A stretch of 64,000 bases of DNA from a virus (lineage: Duplodnaviria > Caudoviricetes), in IMG/VR virus record IMGVR_UViG_3300037743_000134, positions 1 through 64,000 of that record; one strand, given 5' to 3'. The position numbers and the translations under genes are program-made. Numbering within the stretch: position 1 is the stretch's first letter; the number at the start of each line of letters is the position of its first letter. Below are positions 2,285 to 59,176 of this stretch, piece by piece. Below the pieces are notes generated by a model. That model did not search any database, was not told the DNA's origin, and worked only from the letters and a program-made list of their open reading frames with translations.

Positions 2285-4499
2285 GTGAAAACCTTCGGAG
2301 ATACGTCGCTGCTGGAGCTGTACGCAGCTCTGCGAGAGCGTGGCCTGGAACTGGAGGGTATCCATGACGTCGCGCTGAAAGCCGGGAAGCAGCACATCTC
2401 GATCCAGGTTTGGAAGGACGGGAGGTGTCGGCTCTACGAGGTTTCCTTCGGAGACCCACTGGGTACCACTCTGGATAACATCGCGCTGGACGCGAAAAAG
2501 AGGGCTCCGTCGTGACCGTCGCGGTCCGCCGCATCAGCCGCGCGATGGTAGACCACCTCGCGTTCATTGCTGCGCTTGACAATCCGCCGTTTGTCCAGCT
2601 CCGGCGCGGCGACCACTGGGAAAACCAGCGCACGCATGATGCCTTGCTCCGACGCGAGCTCATCGTCGTCGACGCCGAGGGCTACACCCACCTAACGCGC
2701 GCCGGGGTTGACGCGCTAACCGCCCGCCCCGTAGCGCAACCCGAGCCGACGACGGGGGCCCGGTGATGGCCTCCTGCCCCTACTGCGGCCGCTCGTGCAC
2801 GTGCGCGACACTTTGGGACGAGTACGGCACGCCAAGACAGACACACGTTGCGTGCCCACGATGCGGCGAAGCGGACGAGGTCGGCTCGCATTTCGATAAC
2901 GCCTGGTGCTGTTCGTGCAGCTGGCGCGGCTCGTTGACGGCTATGCGGCGCCCCGCTCGCTCAGCGGCGCAACCCGAGCCGACGACGGGGGTCCGCAGCC
3001 GCCTCCCGCCTCGGAATCGGGGTGCAGCCGTGACGTACCTGATTGGACCCGTGCGCATGTACGACGTGCCGCGCCACCAGCGGGCGCCCGTTAGCACGTT
3101 GCCGTTCACGCCGCGCGTCGTGTCGAGGTGGGCCGTTGTCGATCTCGACGCCATCGTCTCCGGGCTGCGTGCCGTGCACGGGACGCTAGCATCCCCCGCT
3201 CGCGCAGTGGCTCAACCCGAGCCGACGACGGGGGTGACCGGTGTGTGACGATTGGGATGACGGCGAGCCGCCGGACGTCTGGGTCCGTGAATGGCGGCGA
3301 GCCCGCAAGGAGCACGAGTGCTGCGCCTGCGCGGAGGCAATTCGTGCCGGCGAGCGCTACCACCTGACGCGCCAGCTCTTCGAGGGCAGCTGGGACGAGT
3401 GGAAGCACTGCGCGCGGTGCTGGGCGATCTGTGAAGCGTTGTGGGCAAGCGGGCGCGACTCCATTGAGTACGGGCTCAACTGCGGCGAGCTCTGGGAGCG
3501 ACCTCCGCCGGAAGTGGAGCGGCTCGCGTTTCTGACTCGCGAGGAAGCCCAAGCGTTGCCGACAACGAGGTCCCGGTGATGCACTGGCCCAGCTTCGCAT
3601 TCGGCGCCTCCGCCACAGCCCTCGTCGTGCTGGCCATCGAGATTGCGTGCTGGGTCGCGCGGTGGAGGAAGACGTGAGCGACGACGCAGTTTTGGAGGCG
3701 CTGCTCCGAGCCAAGGCTCGGGTCGGTCGAGGTTGGATCAAATGGTCCTATCGCAACGGCGACGACGTATGTGCGCTTGGTGCAATTGGCGCGCATTCCG
3801 GTGTCGCCTATCCCATGTTCCTCGATTGCGAAATGTATCTTCATCGAGCGCTAGCTGCCGTTGGTACGCGCGCCAGGGGGCTCGGTATCGGCGGGTTCAA
3901 CGACTGGCCGTCTGTTGAGCAGCGCCACGTGCTCGGATTGTTCGACTGGGCCATGCAGCTGCGGCGCATCGACTTGGCGAGAGGTGACAAATGAGCTTTC
4001 ACCGCATCGTGCCATCGGAGTGGCCGTTCCAAGCGGCGCATCGAGCCAGGCAGAAACGGCGCAGGCTGTGTATCTGCTGCCCGAACAAAGCCGCACCGGG
4101 GCGCGTGCGGTGCGTCAGGTGCCTCGAAGTGCAGCGCACCTGTGAACGACGGCGGCGCATCGACTTGGCAAAGGCGAAGCCATGACCGCGAAGGCGAAGC
4201 GTGCGAGCCCGACCAGCCTCGAAGTGTTCAAGGCCGAACGCGCCGCGAACGGACGCCTTGCGCTGTTCTGGGAACGCACCCGACGCATGCGGGCAGAGCT
4301 CCAGCGTTTCAGTGACCTTTTGGAGCTCGAGCTGCTCATCACCATTAAGGCAGAGCTATCCGAGTTCCGTTCCGTTGAAGCGAAGCTAGCCTACATCGAC
4401 GGGCACCGGGGCTATCTGACGTTCGGTCAACGGGCCGCGCTGGAGCGGTACATAGGCGCTACGGACAAGCCCCGCCGCGCGCGAAAGGGACGCAAGTGA
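2285..4499 (+). CDS. Cluster of small coupled early ORFs (2285-2515, 2512-2766, 2763-3248, 3241-3579, 3579-3677, 3674-3994, 3991-4185, 4182-4499), several Cys-rich Zn-finger-like
   Basis: GTGA/ATGA overlaps; CxxC pairs in 2763, 3241 and 3991 ORFs; 3674-3994 has a GW...C.LGAI...FND pattern that I recall from DUF6197-like phage proteins. Confidence 0.6.
2734..3581 (+). repeat. Dispersed repeat CAACCCGAGCCGACGACGGGGG at 2737, 2970 and 3213, plus a degenerate copy at about 3558
   Basis: Three identical 22-mers read directly; GCCGACAACGAGGTCCCGGTGATG (3558) matches GCCGACGACGGGGGCCCGGTGATG (2745) at 21/24. Confidence 0.92.
3961..4169 (+). repeat. 18-bp direct repeat GCGGCGCATCGACTTGGC (3961-3978, 4152-4169) at the 3' ends of adjacent ORFs
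   Basis: Exact match; both copies encode RRIDLA. Confidence 0.9.
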
Positions 4500-5023
4500 T
4501 GATCCCTCAACACCTGTCACTCACAAATGAACACCCGACACCTGAGCACGTTGTCCTCGCCGCGCGCCGGACGCTGGGAGCATTCGACTTGGACCCAGCC
4601 TCATCCGTGGCGATGAACGAACGGATCGGTGCCTCGCGCTACATCGGCTTGCCCGACGACGGACTCAAGCACTCCTGGCACGGGCGCGTATTCCTGAATC
4701 CTCCAGGCGGGCTCACGCCGAAAAAATGGAAGGTGCGTTACGCGACGCGATCGAACGCTACAGCTTGGTGGCGCAAACTCGCGGAGGAGTACGCCTCACA
4801 TCACGTAACGGCTGCCGTATTCATCGGTTTCACGCTGGAGCTGCTGCGGTCGGCACAGGGCGGGAAATGGGCGCACCCGTTCGACTTCACGATTTGTGTC
4901 CCGAGTGAACGTCTCTGTTTCGCTGGCGACGATCCGACGCACGCGAACGTGATCGTCTATCTCGGTCCCGACGTGGATGTGTTCGAACGGGAGTTCTCGT
5001 CGATAGGAAGGGTGAAACGATGA
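4496..5023 (+). CDS. Phage DNA N6-adenine methyltransferase (Dam-like), motif IV variant NPPG
   Basis: FDLDPAS (SAM-binding) and DGL...W.GRVFLNPPG motifs. Confidence 0.8.
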   Translation: MMIPQHLSLTNEHPTPEHVVLAARRTLGAFDLDPASSVAMNERIGASRYIGLPDDGLKHSWHGRVFLNPPGGLTPKKWKVRYATRSNATAWWRKLAEEYASHHVTAAVFIGFTLELLRSAQGGKWAHPFDFTICVPSERLCFAGDDPTHANVIVYLGPDVDVFEREFSSIGRVKR

Positions 5024-19598: not shown

Positions 19599-20489
19599 GT
19601 GGCAATCGGCGTCTGTTGGGACGGTCACGAATACACGGTGGGCAACGGGTGCCCCGTATGCGCGGTGAACAGAAACCGCGAACGTTACCGTCCGAAAGGA
19701 CGCGGCAAGAAGCAAAAGACATGTCCGAATGGGCATGTGTACTTGTCGGGCCAGGGGTGCGTGGTCTGCGCGCGGGCGCGCTCCAATGAGCGCAGGCGTG
19801 CAGCGTCGCGTGCCCGTAGGCGTGCCCTACCGGAAACAAAAACGTGCCGACGTGGGCACACGTACAAGCCGGGCAAGGGCTGCTACCAATGCCAGCTTGC
19901 ATATTACGCCGAACGCAGACGGGCCGATCCAGAATGGCGCGCTCGCGCCAATGAACGTGGCCGCAAGTATGAACAGCGGCGATATGCCTTAGATGCGGAA
20001 CACCGTGAGCGCCGCAAAGCTCGCGCCAAGCAAAAATGGTGGTCCGACGAAGAGCATCGCGAAAAGGCGAAGTCCAGCGCGAAAGAACGCAAGAAGCAGT
20101 ATCGCTCAGACCCCGCATTCCGCGCAGCACAAGTGCGGGCTGAACGGGTGCGCCTTGATGCCATCTACGAGGACGCCGGGCGCCACGCGGCGCACCGCGA
20201 GAAACAGCGCTGGCGCAATCACATCAGACGCGCTCGTGTAGCGGGTACCGATTCGCCTGGCGTAACCAAAGAAGAGTGGGCAGCAATATGCGCGCGCTTC
20301 GCGAATGACTGTGACGAGACGATCTGCGCGTATTGCAAAAGCCGACTCGCGGATACCATCGACCACGTCGTTCCAATTGCGCGAGGTGGGCGCGATGCAC
20401 CCGACAATGTCGTGCCAGCGTGCAAGAGCTGCAACAGCAGCAAGAACGCCAAGCTTCTGAGCGAGTGGAGACAGACCGCCGCTCTATAA
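19599..20489 (+). CDS. HNH endonuclease with three N-terminal CxxGH...CxxC repeats
   Basis: C-terminal CAYC...TIDHVVPIARGGRD..DNVVPACKSCNSSK. Confidence 0.9.
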   Translation: MAIGVCWDGHEYTVGNGCPVCAVNRNRERYRPKGRGKKQKTCPNGHVYLSGQGCVVCARARSNERRRAASRARRRALPETKTCRRGHTYKPGKGCYQCQLAYYAERRRADPEWRARANERGRKYEQRRYALDAEHRERRKARAKQKWWSDEEHREKAKSSAKERKKQYRSDPAFRAAQVRAERVRLDAIYEDAGRHAAHREKQRWRNHIRRARVAGTDSPGVTKEEWAAICARFANDCDETICAYCKSRLADTIDHVVPIARGGRDAPDNVVPACKSCNSSKNAKLLSEWRQTAAL

Positions 20490-28570: not shown

Positions 28571-28951
28571 ATGAGTGTCGGCGGATCGATCGAATCGGTC
28601 ACGATCAAGGGTCGCACGTTTGCCGTTGCCGCAGACGCGGACGCCGCTCGCCAGCTCGGCGGCGCGTCAGCAGAAGTGCTGGCGAACGGGGACGGAACCG
28701 CGCGCATCGTGAAGACCAAAATTCCGTGGTTGATTAGCGGACTCGCACTCGTCATCAACAACGTGCGCGGCGACCTCGAGTTCCTACAGGAGATCGCCAA
28801 CGGCTCCGTCTTCGTTGCGTGCGACATCACGTTTGCGGACGGCACGACGTATCAGGGCCAAGGCACCGTTACCGGGGAGCTCCAGGCCGGCAGCCAGAAC
28901 GCGACTGCCGAAGTCACGCTCTCAGGCGAAGGTCAGCTCACGAAACAGTGA
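28571..28951 (+). CDS. Tail tube protein
   Basis: Follows the sheath; GGSIES.TI.GR.F.V.AD...GDGT.R...P pattern. Confidence 0.85.
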   Translation: MSVGGSIESVTIKGRTFAVAADADAARQLGGASAEVLANGDGTARIVKTKIPWLISGLALVINNVRGDLEFLQEIANGSVFVACDITFADGTTYQGQGTVTGELQAGSQNATAEVTLSGEGQLTKQ

Positions 28952-28994
28952 TATAACCGTCCCGAAAATGAAGGCGCCGAATGGGCCTCTTACA

Positions 28995-29036
28995 AGCCGT
29001 CGCCGCAACACGCAACCCGTGCCGGCGACGGCTTTT
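28995..29036 (+). terminator. Rho-independent terminator-like hairpin after the tail tube gene
   Basis: AGCCGTCGCCG (28995-29005) / CGGCGACGGCT (29023-29033), 11-bp stem followed by TTTTA. Confidence 0.65.
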
Positions 29037-29046
29037 ATGCATTTGA

Positions 29047-29054
29047 GCTATAAT
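29047..29054 (+). promoter_or_regulatory. -10 box GCTATAAT 8 nt upstream of the HNH start codon
   Basis: Perfect TATAAT at 29049-29054 in GC-rich DNA; GTG at 29063; no Shine-Dalgarno. Confidence 0.6.
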
Positions 29055-29062
29055 TCCGGACG

Positions 29063-29884
29063 GTGAAAGTCTGTCGCAGGGGACATCGGTATGTCGTGCA
29101 ACAGCGGTGCCCGGAGTGTGCGCGGGCGCGGCGCCGCGCGTGGTACGAGCGCAACAAAGAGCGGACTCTTCGGACCAATAAGAAATGGGCAGCCGCAAAC
29201 AAAGCGAAACGGAAAGCGCAACAACGGCGCGAGCACGAGAAAAACGCGGCAGCGTACAAGCGACGCACGCAGGAGTGGCGGCAGAAGAATTCTGAACGAG
29301 AAAAGACGACGCGGCGCCAAAGACGAGCGCGGCTCACATTGAAGCCGCCCGCAAAGAGCGTATGCATACGAGGGCACTCCCGCGTTGTAGGTTTGGATTG
29401 TCCGGAATGTACCAAGTTGCGCATGCGCAAGCGCGGACCGCGCATTCAAGAGCAAGCGAGGCGGACGACCAAAAGGCTTGGCGATATTGACGCGGTGCGC
29501 GCTAAGGAGCGAGCGTGGTACGCGGCGCATCGCGAAGAGAGTTGCGCTTCAGGGCGCGCTTGGCGAAAACGCAATAAAGACAAGACACGGCTAGCGCGAC
29601 AGAGGCGCAGGGCTCGCCTTCGGGGCGCCGGTTCGCCTGGCGTGACGCCTGCCGAATTGGAGGCATTGGTGGAGCAGTTCAATGGCTGCTGCGCGTACTG
29701 CGGAAAGCCCGGCACGACGATCGATCATGTCGTGCCGCTTTCAAAGGGTGGCCGCGACGAAATCGCCAATGTGCTCCCCGCGTGCAAGCCATGCAACTCG
29801 AGCAAGAACAACAGAGACTTATCAGAATGGCTAGCCAGCAAGGGCTACGCGGACCCGCGCGACAAGCATCGATTGAGTGCATAG
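29063..29884 (+). CDS. HNH endonuclease with two CxxGH...CxxC repeats
   Basis: GCCAYCGKPGTTIDHVVPLSKGGRDEIANVLPACKPCNSSK. Confidence 0.9.
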   Translation: MKVCRRGHRYVVQQRCPECARARRRAWYERNKERTLRTNKKWAAANKAKRKAQQRREHEKNAAAYKRRTQEWRQKNSEREKTTRRQRRARLTLKPPAKSVCIRGHSRVVGLDCPECTKLRMRKRGPRIQEQARRTTKRLGDIDAVRAKERAWYAAHREESCASGRAWRKRNKDKTRLARQRRRARLRGAGSPGVTPAELEALVEQFNGCCAYCGKPGTTIDHVVPLSKGGRDEIANVLPACKPCNSSKNNRDLSEWLASKGYADPRDKHRLSA

Positions 29885-29885
29885 C

Positions 29886-30590
29886 GTGATCGTCCTAGCG
29901 GCGCTGGCAACGATACCATCGCGTGCGCACTTGCTGCCGCGTGTGCTCGCCTCGCTGCGCCCACAGGTGGACCGACTGCACGTCTATCTCAACGGCTACG
30001 CCAGCGTCCCTGAGTGCGTACGGGAGCTCGCCGACGAATATGTCCAACATGCGGACAACCGCGGGGCAGAGGCAAAGCTGCACTGGGCAAATACGCACGA
30101 CGGACTTTATTGTTCGTGCGATGACGATCTCGTATACCCACCTCGGTACGTTGCCACAATGGTCGACGCCGTCGCACGGTGGGACGGCCGCGCGATCGTC
30201 AGTGCACACGGGCGCGTGTATCTCGGCGCGCCGAGCGGTTGGCATAACGTCGCACCGAATAGCATCGGCAACGTGCACAAGAACGTTCCATTTGGCCGAT
30301 GGATAAATCACGCCGGCTCGGGCGTCATGACCTGGCAAACGCGGCACGTGCACATACCAAGCGAATTCCCGGAGCGCAATCTCGTGGACGCGCAGATCGC
30401 AACGTGGGCGCAACGCGCGCGCGTGCCCATGTGGCTCGTACCGCATCCGGCGCGTTGGTTGCAAGCGCTCGCCTACCTCGACGCTAAGGGAATCTTCAAA
30501 CAGTCGCAGCTCGATGGTCACAAGCGGCGCTCCGAGATCATTCGACGCCACGGCGTCGAGCACGGCTGGCAATTGTACGAGCTAACGTGA
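29886..30590 (+). CDS. GT-A fold glycosyltransferase
   Basis: ATIPSR...SLRPQVDRL.VYLN and DxD motif in SCDDDLVYP. Confidence 0.8.
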   Translation: MIVLAALATIPSRAHLLPRVLASLRPQVDRLHVYLNGYASVPECVRELADEYVQHADNRGAEAKLHWANTHDGLYCSCDDDLVYPPRYVATMVDAVARWDGRAIVSAHGRVYLGAPSGWHNVAPNSIGNVHKNVPFGRWINHAGSGVMTWQTRHVHIPSEFPERNLVDAQIATWAQRARVPMWLVPHPARWLQALAYLDAKGIFKQSQLDGHKRRSEIIRRHGVEHGWQLYELT

Positions 30591-31867
30591 CGCTACAGCG
30601 CTGGGATGTAATCAATGAGCTGCTCGGTCTGACGACTGAGAGGCGCTACCTCGAGATCGGCGTGCAGCGCGGCATCTGCGGGCGCAAAGTGCGTGCGCCA
30701 GAAAAGTGGGGCGTCGATCCTGATTACGCATCGAGCGCGACGCCCTACTACACGCGTATGGCGCGGCTCACTTCGGATGCATTCTTTGCTCAGCTAGACC
30801 CGCAGCAGCGCTTCGACGTTGTGCTCGTCGACGGATTGCACCACGCGGACCAGGTCTTACGCGACGTCGACAACGTGCTGGCGCATCTGGCGCCGGGCGG
30901 GTTCATTGTCTTGCACGATTGCAACCCGCTCAGCGAGATAGCTCAGCGGGTGCCGCGCGCAACTGGCGTGTGGAATGGCGATTGCTGGAAAGCTATGGTT
31001 GCGCTGCGGCAACGTGGCGACGTCGAAGCGTTCACGGTCGACACGGACCACGGCGTCGGTATCGTGCGCAAACAAGCGAACCCCGGGCCGCTCCGGGACG
31101 TGCCGGCAGAGCTGACTTATGTCGTGTTCGAGGCGGACCGAGAACGATTGATTGGTCTCGTTGCTCCGCAGAGCTGGCGCGAGAGACTTGGCACGTGCTC
31201 GGGACTTGGGCGTGTCGTTGTGGTGTCAGCGATCCTTGGCCGCCGCGACGACGGGTGCGAGCTGCCCAAGGCGCACGACGTCGACGACTACGTAATGTTT
31301 TCGGACGGGCCTCCGCCAGCAGGCTGGCGCCACGTAGCGACGCATGCGGGCGCGGACGCGCGCGCGACAGCTCGACGAATCAAAACTCTGGCGCTGGAGC
31401 TTGAGCAAATCGCCGACGCCGACGTGGTTGTGTGGATCGACGGACGCATCAGGCCCACGGGCAGAGCGCTGCGGCCGCTGCTACGCGAGGCTTTGCGAGA
31501 ATCTGACATCGCCTCATTCCCTCACCCCTGGCGCAATTGTGCGTACGCCGAGGCCCGCGAATGCGCCAGGCTTGGCCGTGCGCCAGTAGAAGCGCTGCAC
31601 CGGCAGACGGCGGCGTACGAAGCCGAGGGCTTTCCGCGTGACGCCGGCCTGTGGAACACGATGGCCCTGGCCCGCAGGCGCACGCCTGCGATGATTGAAT
31701 TCGGCCGTGCATGGTGGGCCGAGATCGAGCGGCACACGCAACGCGATCAGGTGTCGCTGCCTTATCTGCTTTGGCGACATGGCATCACGTGCGGACGGCT
31801 CGGGAAGGACATCTACCGCAAACAGTCGAATCCGTATTTCGAGCGCGGACAGCATCGGCATGCGTGA
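30587..31867 (+). CDS. Fusion of class I SAM methyltransferase (Methyltransf_24-like) and DUF616-like glycosyltransferase
   Basis: YLEIGVQRG, FDVVLVDGLH, GGFIVLHDCNP; C-terminal VWIDGR, HPWRNCAYAEA, WWAEI....RDQVSLPYLLW. Confidence 0.85.
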   Translation: MTLQRWDVINELLGLTTERRYLEIGVQRGICGRKVRAPEKWGVDPDYASSATPYYTRMARLTSDAFFAQLDPQQRFDVVLVDGLHHADQVLRDVDNVLAHLAPGGFIVLHDCNPLSEIAQRVPRATGVWNGDCWKAMVALRQRGDVEAFTVDTDHGVGIVRKQANPGPLRDVPAELTYVVFEADRERLIGLVAPQSWRERLGTCSGLGRVVVVSAILGRRDDGCELPKAHDVDDYVMFSDGPPPAGWRHVATHAGADARATARRIKTLALELEQIADADVVVWIDGRIRPTGRALRPLLREALRESDIASFPHPWRNCAYAEARECARLGRAPVEALHRQTAAYEAEGFPRDAGLWNTMALARRRTPAMIEFGRAWWAEIERHTQRDQVSLPYLLWRHGITCGRLGKDIYRKQSNPYFERGQHRHA

Positions 31868-32816
31868 GATTTTCAAAGCGAGTCTCGCTGCGCTTACGGA
31901 ACCGATCCGCGGACTTCGCGTTTTACTTTTCGGTTTCTCGGGTCCCGGGTTTCCTGGTGGCAACGGGCGAATCGAAGCAGTCGACTGGCTGCCGCAAGCC
32001 GGGCTCGAAGTTACCTACTCGAACGAGCTAGATCCCGAGCTCGAAGAAAAGCTGTCACGCCACTACGACGTTTCGGTCATCTGCAACACGCGAGCCGGAG
32101 CCGTGCTCGGATACGATCGGCGCGTCTGGACGAGCGCCACCGAGTCCGTGTGGTGGTTTTGGGATTTGCGCAACGGGGAAGTCGGAGCTCCACTCCGCGG
32201 CCGACCGCGGCATGTCTTTCTGTCGTACAACGGGCGCTGGACGTCACCGTCCGGCACCGTCTACGAGCCGCGACAATGGGCCCATGCGCTCGGCGCTGCG
32301 GTCCACTACTGCCCGCAGGGTGCACCGCTTCGCGAGCCCGTGACAGTGCCGGACGCGCCGCGCGTCCTATTCGTGGGCGACCTCGCGAATTCAACATACC
32401 ATCGCGGCCGGCGTGAGATGTGCTCGGCATTGGGCGCCAAGGTTCTGAACGCGCGCGACCGCAACGCGCGGCTCGCCATTGAGGCGCAGATGCCGGGCCT
32501 CTATTCGAGCTCGCGATATTGCCTGAGCATGTCGCCGCTCGCGCCTGGGTACACGAGTGTCCGCTCGTATTCGATTCTCGCATGCGGCGGGCTGATGCTG
32601 CTCCACCGGTTTCCCGGAGCTGACGAGATTTTCTCGGACGGTGAAAACGTGATCCTGTTTGACACCGCCGAGGAAGCGATCGCTCGGGCAGCTGGCCTGG
32701 ACGCCGACCCGGAGGAACGGGTGCGCATCGCAGCGGCAGGTAGATTGCTCCACGCGACGCGCCACACCGTCGCGCATCGAATCATTTCGATCTGCCGAGA
32801 GGTCACGGGTTGCTGA
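31860..32816 (+). CDS. GT-B glycosyltransferase (CgeB / Glycos_transf_1_2-like)
   Basis: C-terminal YTSVRSYSILACGGLML....FSDGENVILFD...R.RIAAAG...HT..HR. Confidence 0.85.
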   Translation: MREIFKASLAALTEPIRGLRVLLFGFSGPGFPGGNGRIEAVDWLPQAGLEVTYSNELDPELEEKLSRHYDVSVICNTRAGAVLGYDRRVWTSATESVWWFWDLRNGEVGAPLRGRPRHVFLSYNGRWTSPSGTVYEPRQWAHALGAAVHYCPQGAPLREPVTVPDAPRVLFVGDLANSTYHRGRREMCSALGAKVLNARDRNARLAIEAQMPGLYSSSRYCLSMSPLAPGYTSVRSYSILACGGLMLLHRFPGADEIFSDGENVILFDTAEEAIARAAGLDADPEERVRIAAAGRLLHATRHTVAHRIISICREVTGC

Positions 32817-33451
32817 CCGTTGCGACGGCGATCTTCGGTCCTGACTATGAGCTACACGAGCCGCTACATTCCTGGCCGGGGTGCCGTTTCGTTTGCTTTA
32901 CCGATCGCCACGATCTGCGAGCGCGTGCGTGGAAAATCGTCATCCAGACACATGAGCTCACGCCACGCCGGAGCAATCGTCACATCAAGGCGTTGCTTCA
33001 TCGGTACGTCACGGGACCAACCCTCTACCTCGATGCCGAATTTCAAATCACCGAAGACCCGCGCCCGTGGGTCAACGCCGCGCTGAGCCGACACTGCTGG
33101 GCAGCAACGCGGCACCCGCAGCGCGACTGTCTTTTCTCCGAGGCACGTTACTGCTTGCGGAAGAAATGCACGAGTTCGCCGGTCGAGCTGGCCGCGCAGA
33201 TTCAACGCTACCGACTTGCCGGAATGCCGGAGCGTTTCGGACTCTGGGCGGGCGGCATCCTGGCCCGGCGCGGCGATCATCAGAGTGAGCAGATCGGCGA
33301 AACGTGGTGGAACGAAATCAGCCACGGCGCCGAACGTGATCAGATCAGTCTGCCATTTGTAGCGTGGTGTCTCGGGCTGCACCCGGCAGATATCCCGGGC
33401 GCCTACACATCGTTGCCCGGCGTGCTCAGGAAAAAGCGTGCAGCCAAGTAA
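32810..33451 (+). CDS. DUF616-like glycosyltransferase
   Basis: TAIFGP.Y, FVCFTD, YLDA, RHPQRDCLFSEA, WWNEI....RDQISLPFVAW. Confidence 0.82.
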   Translation: MLTVATAIFGPDYELHEPLHSWPGCRFVCFTDRHDLRARAWKIVIQTHELTPRRSNRHIKALLHRYVTGPTLYLDAEFQITEDPRPWVNAALSRHCWAATRHPQRDCLFSEARYCLRKKCTSSPVELAAQIQRYRLAGMPERFGLWAGGILARRGDHQSEQIGETWWNEISHGAERDQISLPFVAWCLGLHPADIPGAYTSLPGVLRKKRAAK

Positions 33452-33993
33452 TGGACTTTGACAAGTACCGCCGGCTCGGCGACTACCATTGGCGCGAGTA
33501 TGCGCGGCCGACCGTATATCGCGCGTACGTGGACGGCCTGCGCGACTGGGTCAAGGGCTCGGCGATTCTGGACGTGGGCGCAGGCGACGGACTGATTGCG
33601 TACGTAATCGGCGCCACAGGGATCGAACTAGACCCGATCGCGGTAGCGCTCGCGCGGTCTCACGCGGTCGACGTAATCAAGGGCGACGCGGGCGCGTTAC
33701 CGTTTCCCGCCGCGTCATTCGATACGGTCTTTCTCGGCGACGTAATTGAGCACCTCGAAGACCCGCTGCCCGCACTGCTCGAGGCGCGGCGCGTGCTGCG
33801 CAACGACGGGACGCTCTACGTCACAACGCCCCCCGAGCACACGCCGGTGCGCCCATACCACTATCGGGAATATACGCCGGACTCGTTACGCGAAACCGTC
33901 GAGCCGCTGGGGTTCGAACTCAGTGCGCCGATGTTCACGCGACACGATCGCATCCACGCAGCATTTAGCAAGACGTCCCATGCCGTTCGGTGA
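33451..33993 (+). CDS. Class I SAM-dependent methyltransferase
   Basis: ILDVGAGDG, GIELD, GDAGALPF...SFDTV...VIEHL, GTLYVTTP. Confidence 0.92.
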   Translation: MDFDKYRRLGDYHWREYARPTVYRAYVDGLRDWVKGSAILDVGAGDGLIAYVIGATGIELDPIAVALARSHAVDVIKGDAGALPFPAASFDTVFLGDVIEHLEDPLPALLEARRVLRNDGTLYVTTPPEHTPVRPYHYREYTPDSLRETVEPLGFELSAPMFTRHDRIHAAFSKTSHAVR

Positions 33994-34576
33994 CAACTGG
34001 CGCAAACAGGGTCCCGAATATTGGGACGCGATGGCCGCGCGCTGCGCCGACCTGCCGTTTAATGATCTGCTTAGGTCCGAAGTCCTTGTGTGCGGATCTC
34101 TCATCGAGATCGGCTGTGGCGGCGGACACCTAGCGCAGGCGTTATTCGCGGCCGGCTACCACGGCACGTATTGGGGCTGCGACATCTCGCCGGCCGCAGT
34201 CCAAGCGGCGCGCGCACGACTCGGCCCGGACGCTATCGTAGCTGTCGGTCAGTTCGAGCAGCTCTCTTGGATAGACACAGTCCCGCGCGCGGAGCTCGTC
34301 ATAGCCCGGAGCGTCATTCAGCATCAGGAGCACTGGTTGCCGTTGGTCGATGCTGCGCTACGACATGCGCCGCGCGTTGTTCTCGGCGTCAGCCGGGCGA
34401 TCTACTTCAAGCCGACCGGCGAGCACTACGTGCAGAAGCGCGGCTCGTTCTTCGACGTGTGCATTTCGCTCGAAGCAATGGAGCGCGAGGCATCACAAGC
34501 GGGCATCGCGTGCAGCTTCCGTCATGTCGACGGACGGCGCGGACCCGAAGTCGTGATCGCGCTTACGAGGGCGTAG
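33980..34576 (+). CDS. Class I SAM-dependent methyltransferase
   Basis: LIEIGCGGG and YWGCDISPAAV. Confidence 0.85.
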   Translation: MPFGDNWRKQGPEYWDAMAARCADLPFNDLLRSEVLVCGSLIEIGCGGGHLAQALFAAGYHGTYWGCDISPAAVQAARARLGPDAIVAVGQFEQLSWIDTVPRAELVIARSVIQHQEHWLPLVDAALRHAPRVVLGVSRAIYFKPTGEHYVQKRGSFFDVCISLEAMEREASQAGIACSFRHVDGRRGPEVVIALTRA

Positions 34577-34605
34577 CGCGTGGCACTCGTGCTAGAATAC
34601 ACGAC

Positions 34606-35457
34606 GTGAAGCGGGCACCCAGAAGCGAAGAGCAAAAGCAGCGGGATCGCGAGTGTGCAAAGCGCTGGAAAGAACGTAACAAGGGTAGAGCAAAGGCTGC
34701 TCGGAGACGCTGGGTGCTAGCAAACCCAGAAAAGGTAAGAGCACAGAAGCGGCGATGGTATGCGCGGCACCGCGAGGAATGCCTGGCCTACCTAAAGAAA
34801 CGCTACGCTGCGGTTCCCGAAAAAATCAAAGAGAGTGTCCGACGCACCCGGGCGAGCAAGCTGAAGAGGGCGAAGGCGCGCAAGCATCTGGAGAAGAGGC
34901 GCGCGTGGCGAGACAAGAACCGCGAAAAAATACGAGCGCAGCAGCGCGCACGTTACGCAGCGAATCCGGCGAAGTACAAAGCTCAGCAACGGGCAATGCA
35001 TGCCGCACATCCGGAACGGAAACGCTATGCGGCCAAGATGTACAACGCGGCAAACAGCGAGCGCAAAAAGGCATATTACAGGGAATACAATTCCAAGCAC
35101 GCCGCGAAAAAATCGCGGGCATCGTTGCTGTGGCAGCACGCGAATCCTGAAAAAGCCAGGCTACAAAAGAAGCGTGCCATTCATAAAAGGCGAGCTCTGC
35201 TGAGAGATTCAGGGTCCACCGGCTTCACATCGGCGCAGTGGTTATCACTGGTGGAGCGCTTCGGTGGATGCTGCGCTTACTGCGGGAAACCTGGAACCAC
35301 CATCGATCACGTTGTACCCATCGCGGCCGGCGGACGCGACGAGATCAGCAATGTTCTTCCCGCATGCAAAAGCTGCAACGCGAGCAAGGGAAACAAGGTC
35401 CTGGCAATATGGCTTGCACAGAAAGGCTACGTGGACCCACGTAGCAAAGCAGCGTAA
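34606..35457 (+). CDS. HNH endonuclease, paralogue of 29063-29884 (start GTG 34606)
   Basis: GCCAYCGKPGTTIDHVVPIAAGGRDEISNVLPACKSCNASK; TGCTAGAAT 7 nt upstream of the start. Confidence 0.9.
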   Translation: MKRAPRSEEQKQRDRECAKRWKERNKGRAKAARRRWVLANPEKVRAQKRRWYARHREECLAYLKKRYAAVPEKIKESVRRTRASKLKRAKARKHLEKRRAWRDKNREKIRAQQRARYAANPAKYKAQQRAMHAAHPERKRYAAKMYNAANSERKKAYYREYNSKHAAKKSRASLLWQHANPEKARLQKKRAIHKRRALLRDSGSTGFTSAQWLSLVERFGGCCAYCGKPGTTIDHVVPIAAGGRDEISNVLPACKSCNASKGNKVLAIWLAQKGYVDPRSKAA

Positions 35458-35459
35458 GC

Positions 35460-36002
35460 ATGTTAGTGACGGCCGTTCCGTTTGATGTCGAGCGCAACTT
35501 AGGCAGAGCCTACAACCAAACCATGGCCCGTCTGCTGCCGGGCGATTGGCTCTGCGGGATCGACCACGACGTCGCATTCACGACAAAAGACTGGTTTCCG
35601 CAACTGCTCACGGCCATCGAATCGAAGCCCGACGCCGGCTTGATTACTGCGGTTACCAATCGCATAGGGCGCCGAGAACAGGTCGTTCCGGGTGCGCCGG
35701 CTGGTCACGACATGCTTGAGCATCGAGCATTCGGAGCCGCACAGCGCGACCGTTACGGTGCAGCACTAGAGGATATTACGGACGGTCCTGTCATCAGCGG
35801 CCTTCTGATGTGTTTGTCGCAACAGACGTGGCGCGCAATGGGCGGCTTCGCCGATGGGATGATGGGCGTCGACAACGAAGCCCATCGCAGTGTCCGCCGG
35901 ATAGGTAAGCGCGTTTACCTCATGCGGGGTCTCTATCTCTGGCATCTTTATCGCGCGGACGGCATCGGTCACACAAACGCACCGCGCGCGAAACGTAAGT
36001 AA
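35460..36002 (+). CDS. GT-A fold (family 2-like) glycosyltransferase
   Basis: NLGRAYN..M, DxD motif in IDHDVAF, ISGLLMCLS..TW...GGFADG..GVDN. Confidence 0.8.
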   Translation: MLVTAVPFDVERNLGRAYNQTMARLLPGDWLCGIDHDVAFTTKDWFPQLLTAIESKPDAGLITAVTNRIGRREQVVPGAPAGHDMLEHRAFGAAQRDRYGAALEDITDGPVISGLLMCLSQQTWRAMGGFADGMMGVDNEAHRSVRRIGKRVYLMRGLYLWHLYRADGIGHTNAPRAKRK

Positions 36003-36015
36003 AGGCAGGGCAACA

Positions 36016-36432
36016 ATGGCAGGCAAGGTAGTCGCCACGGAAGTGGCGGAGCAGGAGTTCGCGCGCTTTCTCGAGGCAATGGATCTCGCGGAGAAGTGCG
36101 ACGCGAAAGGCCTCGACGTCGAGGACGCGAAGTCTCTCACCGACGTGAAGCGCACGATCATCAGCGCAATGGAGCGCGGCAATCTCGTGGTCGACGACAA
36201 GGGCCAGCCGGTCTACACGCCGAAGGCTGGCGACAACCGAAACCCGATCACGTTTCACGAGCCGACGGGCGCCGACCTCATGGCGATCGATCAAGCCAAG
36301 AAGAGCGAGGACATGAAGCGCGCGTTTCAGTTACTCGGCGCGGTCACAGGCGAAACGCCAGCGCGATTCGCGAAGATGCTCAACCGTGACATCGTCGTCT
36401 GTCAGGCAATCTTCGCACTTTTTTTAGGCTAG
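36016..36432 (+). CDS. Tail assembly chaperone (G-like)
   Basis: Immediately precedes a slippery site and the tape measure gene. Confidence 0.8.
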   Translation: MAGKVVATEVAEQEFARFLEAMDLAEKCDAKGLDVEDAKSLTDVKRTIISAMERGNLVVDDKGQPVYTPKAGDNRNPITFHEPTGADLMAIDQAKKSEDMKRAFQLLGAVTGETPARFAKMLNRDIVVCQAIFALFLG

Positions 36433-36659
36433 AGGTCCGCACGCTGCTCGTGCGCGGCGGCTATGACTGGAAGCTCGAGCCGCACCGCGAGACCGGCGTA
36501 GCGACGCACACGCTGCCGAATGTCTACGGCGAGATGATGCTCCAGGTCTGCTCGGACTATCCCAACGCGCCGCCAGCGCGGACGATGACGCTGAGCGAGA
36601 TACGGTTTTTCTACGAGGGCTTGCGCGCAGGTTTGCGCAAGACAACAAAGCCAAAGTGA
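36420..36659 (+). other. Programmed -1 frameshift (T TTT TTA, 36420-36426) giving a GT-like extended chaperone ending at 36659
   Basis: Heptamer lies two codons before the G stop; the -1 frame is open to 36659. Confidence 0.85.
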
Positions 36660-36662
36660 CGC

Positions 36663-38699
36663 ATGGGCAAGTTTTCAATTAAGGCGCTGTTCAGCGGCGA
36701 GGATAAGGGCGTCGGGCGCATCATCTCGAAGATTGAAGGGCGACTCTCGCGGTTCGCGAAGGGCGCCACCGTGGGTTTCGGCTCGAGCATGAAAAAGGTT
36801 CTCGGCGCCGTCGGCGCTGGCGTCGTCGGCGCCGGCATTGCTGTGGCGGGCGCAGCCACTACGGCAGCGATTGCGCTCAAAGACGTGATCGAGACCGGCG
36901 TCGATTTCGAAAAGACCATGATCGGCGCGGCGGCAAAGTTCTCGCCTGCGTTCCGTCAGGGCACAGCAGAGTTTGCCAAGCTCGAAGCGGCCGCAAAGAA
37001 GATCGGCGAAACGACTGAGTTTTCCGCATCGCAAGGCGCGGCCGGTCTCAAGGATCTCGCAAGCGCGGGCTTTACATCGACGCAGGCGATCGCGGCACTG
37101 CCGCGCATCGTCGACCTTGCAACCGCTGCCGAAATCGAGCTCGACGCGGCGAGCAACATCGCAGCGAAGTCACTCGGTGCGTTTGGTTTGATGAGCGACG
37201 ACGCTGCTCAGCTCGGCGCCAACCTGACGCGCATCACCGACGTCATGGCGCGCACCGCAGACGCAACCGCGTCGAGCATGGAGGGCCTATTCGAGACCAT
37301 CCAAGAGGGCGCGCCGGTCGCGAAGGCCGCGGGCGTTTCGCTCGAGACGTTTATGGCGCTCGCTGGTCAGCTCTCGCAAAGCGGCATCGAGGCGAGCGTC
37401 GCCGGTACGACACTCAAGAACGCAATGCTCATTCTCGCTGCGCCTACCGGCACAGCCGCGAAGGCGCTGAAAAAGCTCGGCATCCAGACGAAGGATTCGA
37501 AGGGCAATATGAGGGACATCATCGATGTCCTGGGTGAGCTCCAGACGAAGACGGCCAAGATGGGCACGGGTCAGAAAGCCGGCGTGCTCGAGGAAATCTT
37601 CGGCAAGATTCCGATCGCTGGCGTTACATCGTTGCTCGATGCGGGATCGGAAAAGCTGCGCGGCTTGCGGGGCGAGCTTGAAAAGTCCGGCGGCTCGACC
37701 GCGCGCATGGCGGGCATCATGCGTGATGCGACCGCTGGCGATCTGAAAAACTTCTCGTCCGCCATCGAATCGGTCAAGCTCGCCGTCTTCGACGTCGTGA
37801 AGGGACCGCTCAAAGACGTCGTCAGGAGCGTTACGGAATGGATGCGCGCCAACAAAGAACTGATCGCGGCGAGCATCAAGTCGTTTCTCGATACGATGAT
37901 CGAAGGCGCCACATTCGTCCGCGACAACTGGGGCACCATCGCGCCGATCCTGAAGGGCATTGCGATTGTGATCGGCGTGCTTGTCGCTGGCGCAACGCTG
38001 CTGTTCGCTCCGTTCTACGCCGTAGTCGTGGTGGTCGGGCTGCTAATCGGCAAGCTCGTGGAGTTCGGGGCATGGGTGATTTCGCTAAAGGGTTTCTGGT
38101 CTGCGTTCGGGAGCTTCTTTGTTGGGCTGTGGGAAATGATCAAGGGCGTCTTCGTCGGCGTCGTCGAGTTCCTTGTGGGTCTCGCGACGCTTTGGGTGGG
38201 GACGTACATGTCGCTCTGGTCTCCGTTTGCGCCGTTCTTCTCTGGACTGTGGGAAGGCATCAAGAGCATCTTCTCCGGCGCGTGGGACTTCATCGTCGCG
38301 GCAGCATTCGTTGTGCGCGATGCCTTTATGGCTGTCTGGGCACCGCTTGCGGGATTCTTCTCGGGCTTGTGGCAGGGCATCGTGGACACGTTCAACACGG
38401 TCGTTGGCCCGATTGTCAAAGTGATCGGTGGCGTGATCGACAAGGTCCGCAGCATCGGACGCGGGACACTCGGCACGGAGACCGCGGAGGGCGAGTCGCC
38501 TGCGCCTGGCGCGGTGCCCGGCACGACACCACAGAAACAAGTCATCGCTCCCGGCGAGCGCGTGGCCAAGAGCATCAGCGAGAGCACGACCAGGGGCGAG
38601 GTTACGGTCAAGGCAACGAAGGGCACCGAGGCCAAGGTCAGCAAGCCCATGAGGGGACCCGGCGTCGGCCTGCGGGTCTCGCCCTCGGGCGCGTTCTGA
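36663..38699 (+). CDS. Tape measure protein (TP901-family core)
   Basis: FEK.M....A...F..LE.AA..IG.TT.FSASQ.A.G...LA.AG; Trp-periodic C-terminal repeats. Confidence 0.95.
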   Translation: MGKFSIKALFSGEDKGVGRIISKIEGRLSRFAKGATVGFGSSMKKVLGAVGAGVVGAGIAVAGAATTAAIALKDVIETGVDFEKTMIGAAAKFSPAFRQGTAEFAKLEAAAKKIGETTEFSASQGAAGLKDLASAGFTSTQAIAALPRIVDLATAAEIELDAASNIAAKSLGAFGLMSDDAAQLGANLTRITDVMARTADATASSMEGLFETIQEGAPVAKAAGVSLETFMALAGQLSQSGIEASVAGTTLKNAMLILAAPTGTAAKALKKLGIQTKDSKGNMRDIIDVLGELQTKTAKMGTGQKAGVLEEIFGKIPIAGVTSLLDAGSEKLRGLRGELEKSGGSTARMAGIMRDATAGDLKNFSSAIESVKLAVFDVVKGPLKDVVRSVTEWMRANKELIAASIKSFLDTMIEGATFVRDNWGTIAPILKGIAIVIGVLVAGATLLFAPFYAVVVVVGLLIGKLVEFGAWVISLKGFWSAFGSFFVGLWEMIKGVFVGVVEFLVGLATLWVGTYMSLWSPFAPFFSGLWEGIKSIFSGAWDFIVAAAFVVRDAFMAVWAPLAGFFSGLWQGIVDTFNTVVGPIVKVIGGVIDKVRSIGRGTLGTETAEGESPAPGAVPGTTPQKQVIAPGERVAKSISESTTRGEVTVKATKGTEAKVSKPMRGPGVGLRVSPSGAF

Positions 38700-57790: not shown

Positions 57791-58545
57791 GCCTCGTAAA
57801 CCGCCTCCTGCGGCGTCCGGGACTCGGGTGCCTCCCTGACCCAGCGGACCCTCGCGATCGCCCTCTAGACGCGCTCCTGGGCGCCCTGGCGAGCTCCGCG
57901 CCCCCGTCAAGCGCGAGCGTCCGGAGCCCGTTCGTGGGACCGAAGAATCAGGGCCCTACTTCGTCTTGTACGGGAATGGCCTGGGCGCAGGCAGTCCGCA
58001 CGACGTTGCTCCGTCGCGGCGTCGGGTGCCCGGAGCTGAGCGCGCTGTTCAGTTACTACGCCGGCCGCGCTGAGTGGGGCGGGCAGCGCAAGGACTCCGG
58101 CAGTCACCTACGTAGCGCCGCTAAGGCGATGATGCGTTTCGGCTGCGCATCCGAGGCTGCCTGGCCGTTCGACTCGCTGCGGGTCAACAAACAACCGACG
58201 TTTTCCGCGTTTCGCAGCGCCCACGATCTGCGCGGCTTGCGGGCGTATGCACGTATCGCGGATGGTGACGTCGATGGCGTGCGGCGTGCAATCGCGGCTG
58301 GGCATGCGGTTACTGCTGGCTGGAAGATAGACAGAGCATTCCAGCTTCACGACGGCAAAGGTGTGCTCGATGTTCCGCGCGGGCCGATCATCGGAGCTCA
58401 TGCCTGGGTTTTGGAAGACTACGCGTCGGATGGAACGTTTGGTCTGATCAATTCGTGGTCGGAGCGATGGGCGAACGCTGGACGGGCACGAATGACGGAA
58501 GCATTCGTGGCACAGGCGCGGGACATGTGGACATGCGCGGCTTAA
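57787..58545 (+). CDS. Papain-like (C1) cysteine protease
   Basis: G.LPD..DPRD N-terminus; NQG..SSCTG (Gln, Cys), GAHA (His), INSW (Asn). Confidence 0.88.
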   Translation: MSLVNRLLRRPGLGCLPDPADPRDRPLDALLGALASSAPPSSASVRSPFVGPKNQGPTSSCTGMAWAQAVRTTLLRRGVGCPELSALFSYYAGRAEWGGQRKDSGSHLRSAAKAMMRFGCASEAAWPFDSLRVNKQPTFSAFRSAHDLRGLRAYARIADGDVDGVRRAIAAGHAVTAGWKIDRAFQLHDGKGVLDVPRGPIIGAHAWVLEDYASDGTFGLINSWSERWANAGRARMTEAFVAQARDMWTCAA

Positions 58546-59096
58546 CGAACATGGCGCCAGTTTCTCCGAAGGAGAATGAGGCTGATCGCGGACCTGCTGA
58601 CTCCAAACCTCATAGCGAGATCGATTCCGCTCACTGTTGCGGCCAAATCTCGAATGAGGCTGACATCCTCCACGGTGAGTTTCGCATTAAAATTGCGCTC
58701 GCCACGCACGCCTCGCGAGCGCCCTTTGCGTGCAGCGTCACGGTTGTTGTCGACGGCTGTACCAAGGAAAAGGTGCTCGGGATTCACGCACGGCGGATTG
58801 TCACAACTGTGAAGCACCCACATGCCAGGTGGGACAGCGCCGAATGCCAGCTGCCAACTAAACCGGTGTGCGCGATGCTCCCTACCGGACTTGCCGTAAC
58901 CATCCTTGTCTCGACTCCCAGTCCAGAGCCAACAGTCACCGGTCTTGTCCACTTTTGCCCAGAAGCGAGGGCCATTGAGCTTGTGGATACACGGTCGCGA
59001 ACAAAAGCTCCCGCGGCCGTATCGCAGCTCACGGGGCGCCACCCAAAACTCTGCTTCGCATCCTTGGCAAATGCGCCGTATCTTCGTCGTGCTCAT
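58542..59096 (-). CDS. HNH homing endonuclease (HNH_3-type), antisense in the lysis region
   Basis: CWLWTG..DKDGYG...AHRFSW...G.VPPGMWVLHSCDNPPCVNPEHLFLGT; AGGAGG RBS; stop codon overlaps the protease stop. Confidence 0.9.
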   Translation of the reverse strand: MSTTKIRRICQGCEAEFWVAPRELRYGRGSFCSRPCIHKLNGPRFWAKVDKTGDCWLWTGSRDKDGYGKSGREHRAHRFSWQLAFGAVPPGMWVLHSCDNPPCVNPEHLFLGTAVDNNRDAARKGRSRGVRGERNFNAKLTVEDVSLIRDLAATVSGIDLAMRFGVSRSAISLILLRRNWRHVR

Positions 59097-59176
59097 GGGA
59101 CTCATCCTCCTGTGGGCCACGTGCCCGGTCGTGTAGCAGCGACGCGGGCACACTCACTTTATAGCACAGAGGGCAC

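Follow-up and report, generated by a model that had tools for sequence, protein, structure and literature searches.

A seven-enzyme glycosyltransferase and methyltransferase cassette in the morphogenesis operon of an uncultured phage: a candidate module for virion glycosylation

Results

A glycan-enzyme cassette between the tail tube and tail assembly chaperone genes

The DNA analyzed here (64,000 nucleotides, hereafter the window) is the first 64 kb of the 78,265-bp IMG/VR virus record IMGVR_UViG_3300037743_000134, a member of the Caudoviricetes whose genome CheckV rates as complete. Between its tail tube and tail assembly chaperone genes we found a gap of 7,064 bp holding nine plus-strand genes: seven predicted glycan enzymes, which we refer to as the cassette, and two HNH endonucleases (Table 1). 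A first-pass annotation of this DNA, made from its letters and open reading frames (ORFs), had described a seven-gene glycosyltransferase (GT)/methyltransferase block parting two normally adjacent tail genes by about 7 kb. The two genes are indeed adjacent elsewhere, with a spacing of 100-155 bp in the cultured Shewanella phage SppYZU01 and Aeromonas phage AeroV_348 and of 0-200 bp in 21 of the 29 informative IMG/VR relatives, making the block an insertion relative to most relatives. The count of seven fits the glycan enzymes but overlooked the two HNH genes lying among them.

Neighboring genes of the cassette overlap by 1-14 nt; the start ATG of the CgeB-like GT gene at 31860, for instance, overlaps the stop of the gene upstream. 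The genes are thus tightly coupled, as the first-pass annotation had it, except that the coupling is interrupted by the two HNH genes and by a strong hairpin at 28994-29033. The phage had also been called Mu-like-tailed, a description that we would restrict to the baseplate, to which its Mu-like domains are confined. It combines a contractile tail with a lambda-like head (GpA terminase, lambda portal, S49 protease, gpD-like decoration protein and gpE-type capsid), and its closest cultured relatives infect Shewanella, Aeromonas, Vibrio and Acinetobacter. The first-pass annotation had taken the host for a probable myxobacterium, a guess for which our comparisons gave no support.

Table 1. Features of the cassette and its surroundings, with window positions.
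Feature	Position	Strand	Basis or remarks
gpD-like head decoration protein, 137 aa	23791-24204	+	phrog_49 'head decoration', E 2.5e-10
Tail tube protein	28571-28951	+	phrog_4699, E 1e-34; upstream border of the block
Intergenic spacer, 111 bp	28952-29062	+	12-bp GC-rich hairpin and T-tract at ~28994-29038; GCTATAAT 8 nt before the HNH1 GTG
HNH endonuclease 1 (HNH1), 273 aa	29063-29884	+	PF01844, E 1.2e-12; several PHROG HNH/endonuclease VII families
GT-A no. 1, 237 aa, homologue of GT45 (KfiA, PmHS2 GlcNAc-T domain)	29877-30590	+	Fold and profile
Fusion, 426 aa: N-terminal Methyltransf_24 class I SAM methyltransferase, C-terminal TOD1/MUCI70 (DUF616) GT-like domain	30587-31867	+	PF13578, 52.2 bits (cut-off 26.3); PF04765, 29.0 bits (cut-off 21.4)
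CgeB-like GT (Glyco_trans_1_2), 318 aa	31860-32816	+	PF13524, 72.5 bits (cut-off 25)
Stand-alone TOD1/MUCI70 (DUF616) GT-like protein, 213 aa	32810-33451	+	PF04765, 36.5 bits (cut-off 21.4)
Class I SAM methyltransferase (Methyltransf_11), 180 aa	33451-33993	+	PF08241, E 9e-18, 65.1 bits
Class I SAM methyltransferase (Methyltransf_12), 198 aa	33980-34576	+	PF08242, E 1.3e-10, 42.3 bits
Nine-codon mini-ORF, the stranded original start of the last GT (GTGGCACTCGT), then GCTAGAAT	34580-34609	+	Window 34540-34640 compared with L004 15820-15920
HNH endonuclease 2 (HNH2), 283 aa, paralogue of HNH1	34606-35457	+	PF01844, E 8.9e-12
Minimal GT-A (no. 2), 180 aa	35460-36002	+	phrog_14179 glycosyltransferase, E 8.7e-19; fold
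Tail assembly chaperone	36016-36432	+	PF10109, 28.8 bits; downstream border of the block

Seven soluble enzymes predicted to build and methylate a glycan

The first GT of the cassette (237 aa) matched no Pfam or NCBIfam model. Its AlphaFold2 model, built from a 40-sequence family alignment, reached a predicted local distance difference test (pLDDT) score of 96.6. The best Foldseek match in the Protein Data Bank (PDB) was the GlcNAc-transferase domain of PmHS2 (8viw; E 1.6e-18, TMq 0.82), with KfiA (5z8b) at E 1.6e-16 and the following families only at E ~1e-7. A profile of 40 homologues run against PDB sequences recovered the same two proteins (PmHS2, E 1.7e-27; KfiA, E 2.6e-21), and the DxD metal/nucleotide motif, D82-D83-D84, is invariant across the 40 sequences. 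On the strength of the fold match, the profile match and the invariant motif, we assign this protein to the GT45-type relatives, and we predict it to be a retaining UDP-N-acetylhexosamine (UDP-HexNAc) transferase. It resembles the alpha-1,4-N-acetylglucosaminyltransferases KfiA (E. coli K5) and PmHS2 (Pasteurella) in fold, profile homology and DDD motif, but shares only ~20% identity with them, lacks a heparosan partner (KfiC or a GlcA-T domain) and has its gene in the morphogenesis operon of a phage; its acceptor may be a protein. In its own record this ORF has a public gene call (P0003) of 143 aa, 60% of the protein, so that the existing annotation truncates it.

The fusion of a methyltransferase with a DUF616 domain is 59-72% identical across seven relatives, with many invariant columns. 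The stand-alone DUF616 protein matched phrog_26101 (glycosyltransferase, E 2.7e-19), and its closest Atlas clusters are viral TOD1/MUCI70 proteins of ~200 aa. PHROG 26101 is itself a 407-aa fusion of DUF616-like and mini-GT-A parts. As for the two small methyltransferases, the Methyltransf_11 protein matched generic class I methyltransferases among PDB sequences, a D-glucose O-methyltransferase among them, and showed weak similarity to the mycofactocin oligosaccharide methyltransferase MftM (NCBIfam, below cut-off); the Methyltransf_12 protein is 91% identical to its counterpart in L004, the closest relative described below. From their context, namely the fusion to a GT domain and the GT neighbors, we infer that the methyltransferases act on sugar hydroxyls.

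The last GT (180 aa) stays below the Pfam threshold for Glycos_transf_2 (GT2; 17.3 bits, cut-off 23.3), and its model is a compact GT-A (AlphaFold2 pLDDT 93.9) with ppGalNAc-T2 as the top Foldseek match (E 2.9e-5). The VIA all-against-all structure search matched it to 38 chains at Z>=8; nearly all of the listed ones are GT-A enzymes, among them K4CP (Z 10.8) and the minimal viral GT STIV A197 (Z 10.7). The latter, an enzyme of an archaeal virus with 10% identity to the 180-aa GT, is likewise a small GT-A with a DxD motif and a C-terminal His, and 135 residues align at a root-mean-square deviation of 3.3 A. Residues D35, D37, D138 and H162 are invariant in the 180-aa GT, whose family is large, with 914 representatives at E<=0.001 that occur stand-alone or as modules of multidomain proteins.

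Neither single-sequence nor profile searches of PDB sequences were informative for the fusion, the CgeB-like GT or the 180-aa GT. In NCBIfam the five GT-domain proteins (four GTs and the fusion) had no match, and all matches of the methyltransferases fell below cut-off. Profiles and structure models nonetheless agree on the domain inventory that the first-pass annotation had given, i.e. two GT-A, two DUF616 and one CgeB-like GT domain together with three class I methyltransferase domains, one of them fused to a GT. The profiles and folds fit neither a DNA-base modification system nor unrelated folds.

No hydrophobic 19-mer above a Kyte-Doolittle (KD) value of 1.6 was found in any of the seven proteins (maximum KD19 1.57), by which measure all seven are soluble and have no membrane segment. 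Pfam, PHROG and NCBIfam revealed no polyprenol-phosphate/lipid-carrier transferase, flippase, polymerase or exporter family among them; components of the Gtr/O-antigen type of seroconversion (membrane-embedded transferase, flippase, polymerase) were likewise not found by hydrophobicity or Pfam.

The first-pass annotation had seen no genes for nucleotide-sugar synthesis in the block, and our search extends this to the whole 78-kb genome, in which the Epimerase, NTP_transferase and DegT profiles found nothing. The sugar donors would therefore come from the host. The complete genome also contains no thymidylate synthase (PF00303) and no C5 cytosine methyltransferase (PF00145), the controls for both being positive; the Tet/JBP profile (PF12851) gave no match either, with a control that was silent too. 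The DNA methyltransferases detected are only of the N6/N4 and Dam-like kind.

The cassette is conserved, mobile and confined to the morphogenesis operon

The closest relative, the uncultured phage L004, has a tube protein 98%, a capsid protein 99% and a sheath protein 91% identical to those of the window. It carries the seven cassette genes in identical order between tube and chaperone, with no HNH gene, and the GTG start of its first GT overlaps the tube stop (GTGA). The gene arrangement of this HNH-free relative indicates that the ancestral cassette was translationally coupled to the tube gene, and the overlap leaves no room there for a promoter. All seven genes are intact and, with a dN/dS of 0.12-0.21 against L004, under purifying selection. 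Their dS values are 0.9-1.6, except for 0.47 in the Methyltransf_12 gene, far above those of capsid (0.19) and tube (0.46), from which we conclude that cassette alleles have been exchanged between phages. The genomes are mosaic around the block (28571-38699): the proteins from portal to tube are 85-99% identical, those of the cassette 63-91%, the chaperone 70% and the tape measure 29%, and the DNA-circularization-like baseplate protein is back at 94%.

Including variants, the cassette is found in ~10 distinct uncultured relatives, where it occupies one of three late-operon positions: after the tube gene (L004, L012, L018, L075, L082, L159), after the major capsid gene (L006/L080), and between tape measure and baseplate (L078, L194). 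Every one of these sites falls inside the head-tail morphogenesis operon, and in many relatives the genes keep a single order. Three further phages (L022, L083, L084) have only the GT45-like gene after the tube gene, and L074 has this gene and one extra GT2 gene; the GT45-like gene is the sole cassette gene also found alone at the tube site. Some variants carry accessory enzymes, such as a DegT sugar aminotransferase added in L075, an NDP-sugar 4,6-dehydratase/epimerase added in L082, and a sulfotransferase that replaces one methyltransferase in L018. Since these enzymes are specific to sugar chemistry, they argue for a glycan pathway.

Among deposited phages (50,697 records), a tblastn search with the GT45-like GT gave no match, and the methyltransferase-DUF616 fusion gave only partial weak matches, none of them in mycobacteriophages. 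Judged by these two queries, the cassette is absent from deposited phages, in keeping with the remark of the first-pass annotation that it knew of no description of such a cassette.

Parts of the cassette recur elsewhere. In the more distant viral contigs L167, L168, L175-L180, L187 and L271, from IMG/VR and metagenomes, mini-GT-A, DUF616 and Methyltransf_24-type domains co-occur in another order (GT180, DUF616, ..., methyltransferase). The N-terminal methyltransferase domain of the fusion is, on its own, very common in aquatic metagenomes, with more than 312 confirmed relatives in a scan of metagenome contigs (L196-L271; ~40% identity; motifs VWNGDCW and DGLHHA[DE]Q). The cassette-free relative L154 encodes, between its head-closure and tail-terminator genes (3034-4401), a 455-aa protein with a concanavalin-A-like lectin (Laminin_G_3) domain, which from its sequence may be a sugar-binding virion appendage.

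The GT45-like family lies beside head genes in other phages

We confirmed 157 remote members of the GT45-like family in IMG/VR, at 25-46% identity. In at least 13 of 90 loci, which involve three separate capsid families, such a gene immediately follows that of a major head protein, and in 23 of 96 loci it immediately precedes the gene of the head maturation protease. Other members adjoin nucleotide-sugar epimerases, UDP-glucose dehydrogenases or methyltransferases. A scan of genome contigs with the first GT found homologues only at <=35% identity, spread over many phyla.

A serine-ending tail of the decoration protein co-varies with the cassette

The C-terminus of the head decoration protein differs between phages with and without the cassette. 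In the window it ends in FTDEDS (codons 24184-24201). All nine distinct carriers of a multi-GT cassette have such an extension, 4-8 residues long, acidic or rich in Pro and closed by a terminal Ser (PQPEPIES, PQPGGDS, IPAEDS, PQPEPEGS, PQDTVDS, PQPTESDS and PQPDDLDS in relatives). None of the 15 relatives without the cassette has a Ser tail; their decoration proteins stop short of it, with Q, A or D as the last residue. Among the phages with only the GT gene, the decoration protein ends in Ser in two of three (NPQS, DNQS) and in Ala in the third. A single-protein scan for the decoration protein added only six new loci. The C-terminus of lambda gpD is surface-exposed and accepts fusions. From these sequence comparisons, the presumably exposed, acidic, Ser-ending tail emerges as the best candidate for the glycan acceptor. 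Our literature search found no paper on a phage-glycosylated decoration protein.

Acceptors at the C-termini of tube, capsid or sheath, in the style of mycobacteriophages, were considered and rejected, as these termini do not co-vary with the cassette; the conserved QNAT of the tube protein is also present in cassette-free phages. In two short contigs, L156 and L158, the decoration protein ends in DNS with no extension, and Pfam-less ORFs of 703-706 aa lie near the neck genes.

Both HNH genes of the block are later insertions

The two HNH proteins are 41% identical overall and 71% across their last ~78 residues, which contain the HNH core. A third paralogue is encoded at 19599-20489, after the terminase gene, and the cores of all three are 57-71% identical. 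Each of these genes has the sequence GCTAnAAT 7-8 nt 5' of its GTG start and no obvious Shine-Dalgarno sequence. HNH1 is missing from the tube junction in L004, L012 and L018, and HNH2 is missing in L004; another relative, L075, likewise has an HNH gene within its cassette.

HNH2 sits within the first codons of the last GT gene, and its junction could be mapped to the nucleotide. Where the Methyltransf_12 gene of L004 meets the last GT, the sequence is TAG-cgc-GTGGCACTCGTCACAGCG; at this place the window has TAG-cgc-GTGGCACTCGT, after which GCTAGAAT and HNH2 follow. The original GT start is thereby stranded in a mini-ORF (Table 1), and a new ATG past the HNH2 stop, a replacement start supplied beside the insert, restores the last GT. 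The stop of the mini-ORF overlaps the GTG of HNH2 (ACGTGA), so that translational coupling could drive the synthesis of HNH2 without a promoter of its own. Because L004 has the seven genes without HNH genes and HNH2 splits a GT start, sequence comparison marks both HNH genes as later selfish insertions, which broke no cassette gene.

In these respects they resemble free-standing phage HNH homing endonucleases: they have the HNH motif, are absent from a very close relative, are inserted exactly at gene borders with intact neighbors, and have paralogues elsewhere in the genome. They differ from characterized HNH homing endonucleases in their long basic N-terminal regions without a family match, and cleavage and homing are putative here. 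Two more endonuclease genes, of another type (HNH_3/His-Me finger), are encoded on the minus strand at 58542-59153 of the window and at 66968-67690 of the genome (L034 4969-5691). Together with the three HNH genes, the 78-kb genome therefore has at least five free-standing endonuclease genes; relatives of this phage measure ~43 kb.

The spacer after the tube gene

The RNA of the spacer that now follows the tube gene folds at -44.8 kcal/mol (z -4.28), and none of 200 shuffles folded equally well. AeroV_348 and the cassette-bearing L012 have comparable hairpins after their tube genes, and the hairpin looks like an ancestral attenuator that would lower expression past the tube gene, rather than a moron boundary. 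In the block, a simple scan for promoters detected no signal beyond chance level; the -10-like boxes that precede the HNH genes were noted by eye only. Gene comparisons further identify the tube-chaperone junction as an insertion hot spot. At this junction L027, L028 and L030, from another branch of the lineage, carry a reverse-strand moron of 1.2-1.6 kb (e.g. L030 11869-12990, minus strand) with a small Fis-type helix-turn-helix protein.

Discussion

At the level of enzyme content, the block is well supported as a seven-enzyme module that would build and methylate a glycan. We propose that the cassette glycosylates proteins of the phage particle, a reading to which we assign a probability of about 0.55. 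The first-pass annotation had named two targets, virion proteins and the host envelope, and it is the former that gene context, solubility and the co-varying decoration tail favor. Soluble enzymes, a cassette that sits inside the morphogenesis operon and a GT family that recurs beside head genes point to an acceptor made late and in the cytoplasm, most simply a particle protein; the ancestral coupling to the tube gene and the decoration tail add to this. The annotation had also spoken of a complete assembly line for a methylated oligosaccharide. The enzyme content agrees with such a line, but to call it complete goes further than the sequence supports, given that relatives add tailoring enzymes and that the donors come from the host.

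In our model, the cassette would be an ancestral, late-expressed cytoplasmic module that uses nucleotide sugars and S-adenosylmethionine (SAM) of the host to furnish a particle protein with a short hetero-oligosaccharide bearing O-methyl groups. The GT45-like enzyme would either start the chain or add an early alpha-HexNAc, a position that we propose because it is the only cassette enzyme whose gene also occurs alone at the tube site. The remaining GTs would lengthen the chain, and the fused and the two small methyltransferases would cap its sugars with O-methyl groups, mirroring A064R plus A061L of the chloroviruses. The acceptor would be the Ser-ending acidic C-terminal tail of the decoration protein, and the glycan may shield the particle or change its adhesion.

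By analogy, the nearest functional precedent is the virion glycosylation of mycobacteriophages (Freeman et al. 2023, as cited in PMC11600133, PMC12363180 and PMC12619734). In cluster O phages such as Corndog, an O-methyltransferase gene followed by three GT genes modifies capsid and tail tube (PMC11600133); virion glycosylation is also known from Che8 and Myrna (PMC12363180), its glycans are located at C-termini (PMC12619734), and it weakens antibody recognition. Common to both systems are tandem phage GTs beside a methyltransferase, among or near structural genes, and, since the mycobacteriophage enzymes act at exposed C-termini of particle proteins, also the kind of acceptor proposed here. 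The differences are considerable. Searches with the GT45-like GT and the fusion found no sequence relationship, and the GT families here are others; the set is larger, with five GT and three methyltransferase domains; the phage has a contractile tail, a lambda-like head and relatives that infect Gammaproteobacteria; and the candidate acceptor is the decoration protein instead of capsid or tube, in a system known from its genes alone.

For the abundance of methyltransferases, the nearest mechanistic precedent, again by analogy, is chlorovirus PBCV-1. Its A064R combines two GT domains with a methyltransferase, and the terminal rhamnose of its capsid glycan receives a second O-methyl from A061L, both proteins being soluble cytoplasmic enzymes (PMC9614988). 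Compared by description, the cassette shares with it a methyltransferase fused to a GT, an extra small (~200 aa) class I methyltransferase and the solubility of the enzymes. PBCV-1 differs in being a eukaryotic giant virus with N-linked glycans on its major capsid protein. The cassette thus shares the logic of known systems but not their sequences, having other GT families, more enzymes and a different type of phage.

Alternatively, the cassette may modify a glycan or protein of the host surface, such as the lipopolysaccharide core or an O-unit on its lipid carrier on the cytoplasmic side, exopolysaccharide, pilin or flagellin, in order to mask receptors, exclude superinfection or keep progeny off debris. 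Serotype-altering phage GTs are well known, as cited in PMC12619734. KfiA and PmHS2, the nearest characterized relatives of the first GT, build capsular polysaccharide; the block lies at a moron hot spot; and the terminator-like hairpin and -10-like element that precede it make expression apart from the late operon conceivable. We nevertheless regard this alternative as unlikely, considering that seven proteins without a membrane segment or a match to a polyprenol-phosphate glycosyltransferase, flippase, polymerase or exporter would have to do the work, that the L004 cassette is coupled to the tube gene with no room for a promoter, that the cassette relocates only among sites of the morphogenesis operon, and that its GT family lies repeatedly beside head genes in unrelated phages. 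The persistence of the cassette in the structural operon, at three alternative sites, also speaks against a soluble or non-virion product, be it a free methylated oligosaccharide, a glycosylated small molecule or a modified non-structural phage or host cytoplasmic protein. The solubility of all enzymes, the weak similarity of the Methyltransf_11 protein to MftM and the merely candidate status of the virion acceptor would fit such a product; yet the tie of the GT family to head genes in other lineages and the co-variation of a virion protein tail with the cassette make it quite improbable in our judgment.

Glycosylation of the phage DNA against restriction, by hypermodification of hydroxylated pyrimidines, also deserves consideration, as many phage GT-A and GT-B enzymes act on 5-hydroxymethylcytosine (5hmC) or 5-hydroxycytosine (5hoC) and their clusters can adjoin structural genes (Pyle et al., bioRxiv 10.1101/2023.12.21.572611; Lee et al., PMC13326640). 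We demoted this reading and hold it to be very improbable, because ThyA, C5-methyltransferase and TET homologues were looked for in the complete genome and not found (with the TET control silent), because the DNA methyltransferases present are of other kinds, and because three O-methyltransferase-type enzymes and five GT domains far exceed the known DNA sugar pathways.

Several observations weigh against virion glycosylation. The phage is uncultured and known from sequence alone. In this phage the hairpin and HNH1 now part the cassette from the tube gene, and since unrelated morons occupy the same junction, the position of the cassette is by itself weak evidence. KfiA and PmHS2 use glycan, not protein, acceptors. 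The C-termini of tube, capsid and sheath are the same with and without the cassette. A second lineage, the 285-aa capsid family, gave no clear answer on a link between GT presence and a Ser/Thr-rich capsid tail, as a close relative without a GT within 4 kb downstream has a similar tail. The decoration protein that ends in Ala belongs to L083 (~4270-4945), one of the GT-only phages and the sole exception to the pairing of a GT with a terminal Ser, and carries an inserted domain of ~100 aa. Finally, the raw counts link tail and cassette without exception, but this link is not established statistically, because on the capsid-protein tree it amounts to one well-supported independent contrast, or three when all branches are counted.

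In the searchable literature, phage-encoded virion glycosylation is documented only for mycobacteriophages, the other documented cases being giant and archaeal viruses. A broader and more tentative idea, which we consider possible but doubtful in its full extent, is that phage self-glycosylation is widespread. The head-gene GT45-like family and the portable seven-enzyme module would then put an O-methylated oligosaccharide on a gpD-like tail with a terminal Ser, and the module, by hopping between late-operon sites and swapping tailoring enzymes (aminotransferase, dehydratase, sulfotransferase), would give rise to differing glycan coats, in effect a phage serotype system.

If virion glycosylation by the cassette is true, self-glycosylation would not be peculiar to actinobacteriophages but a trait that environmental phages with lambda-like heads possess in modular, mobile form. 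The Pfam-less GT family, which has hundreds of members, would also gain a function, as would the short viral DUF616 and mini-GT-A families. Moreover, this reading would name a concrete acceptor, the short C-terminal tail of the decoration protein, that is testable in E. coli without culturing the phage, and the pair of tail and enzymes could serve as a tool for displaying defined glycans on phage particles.

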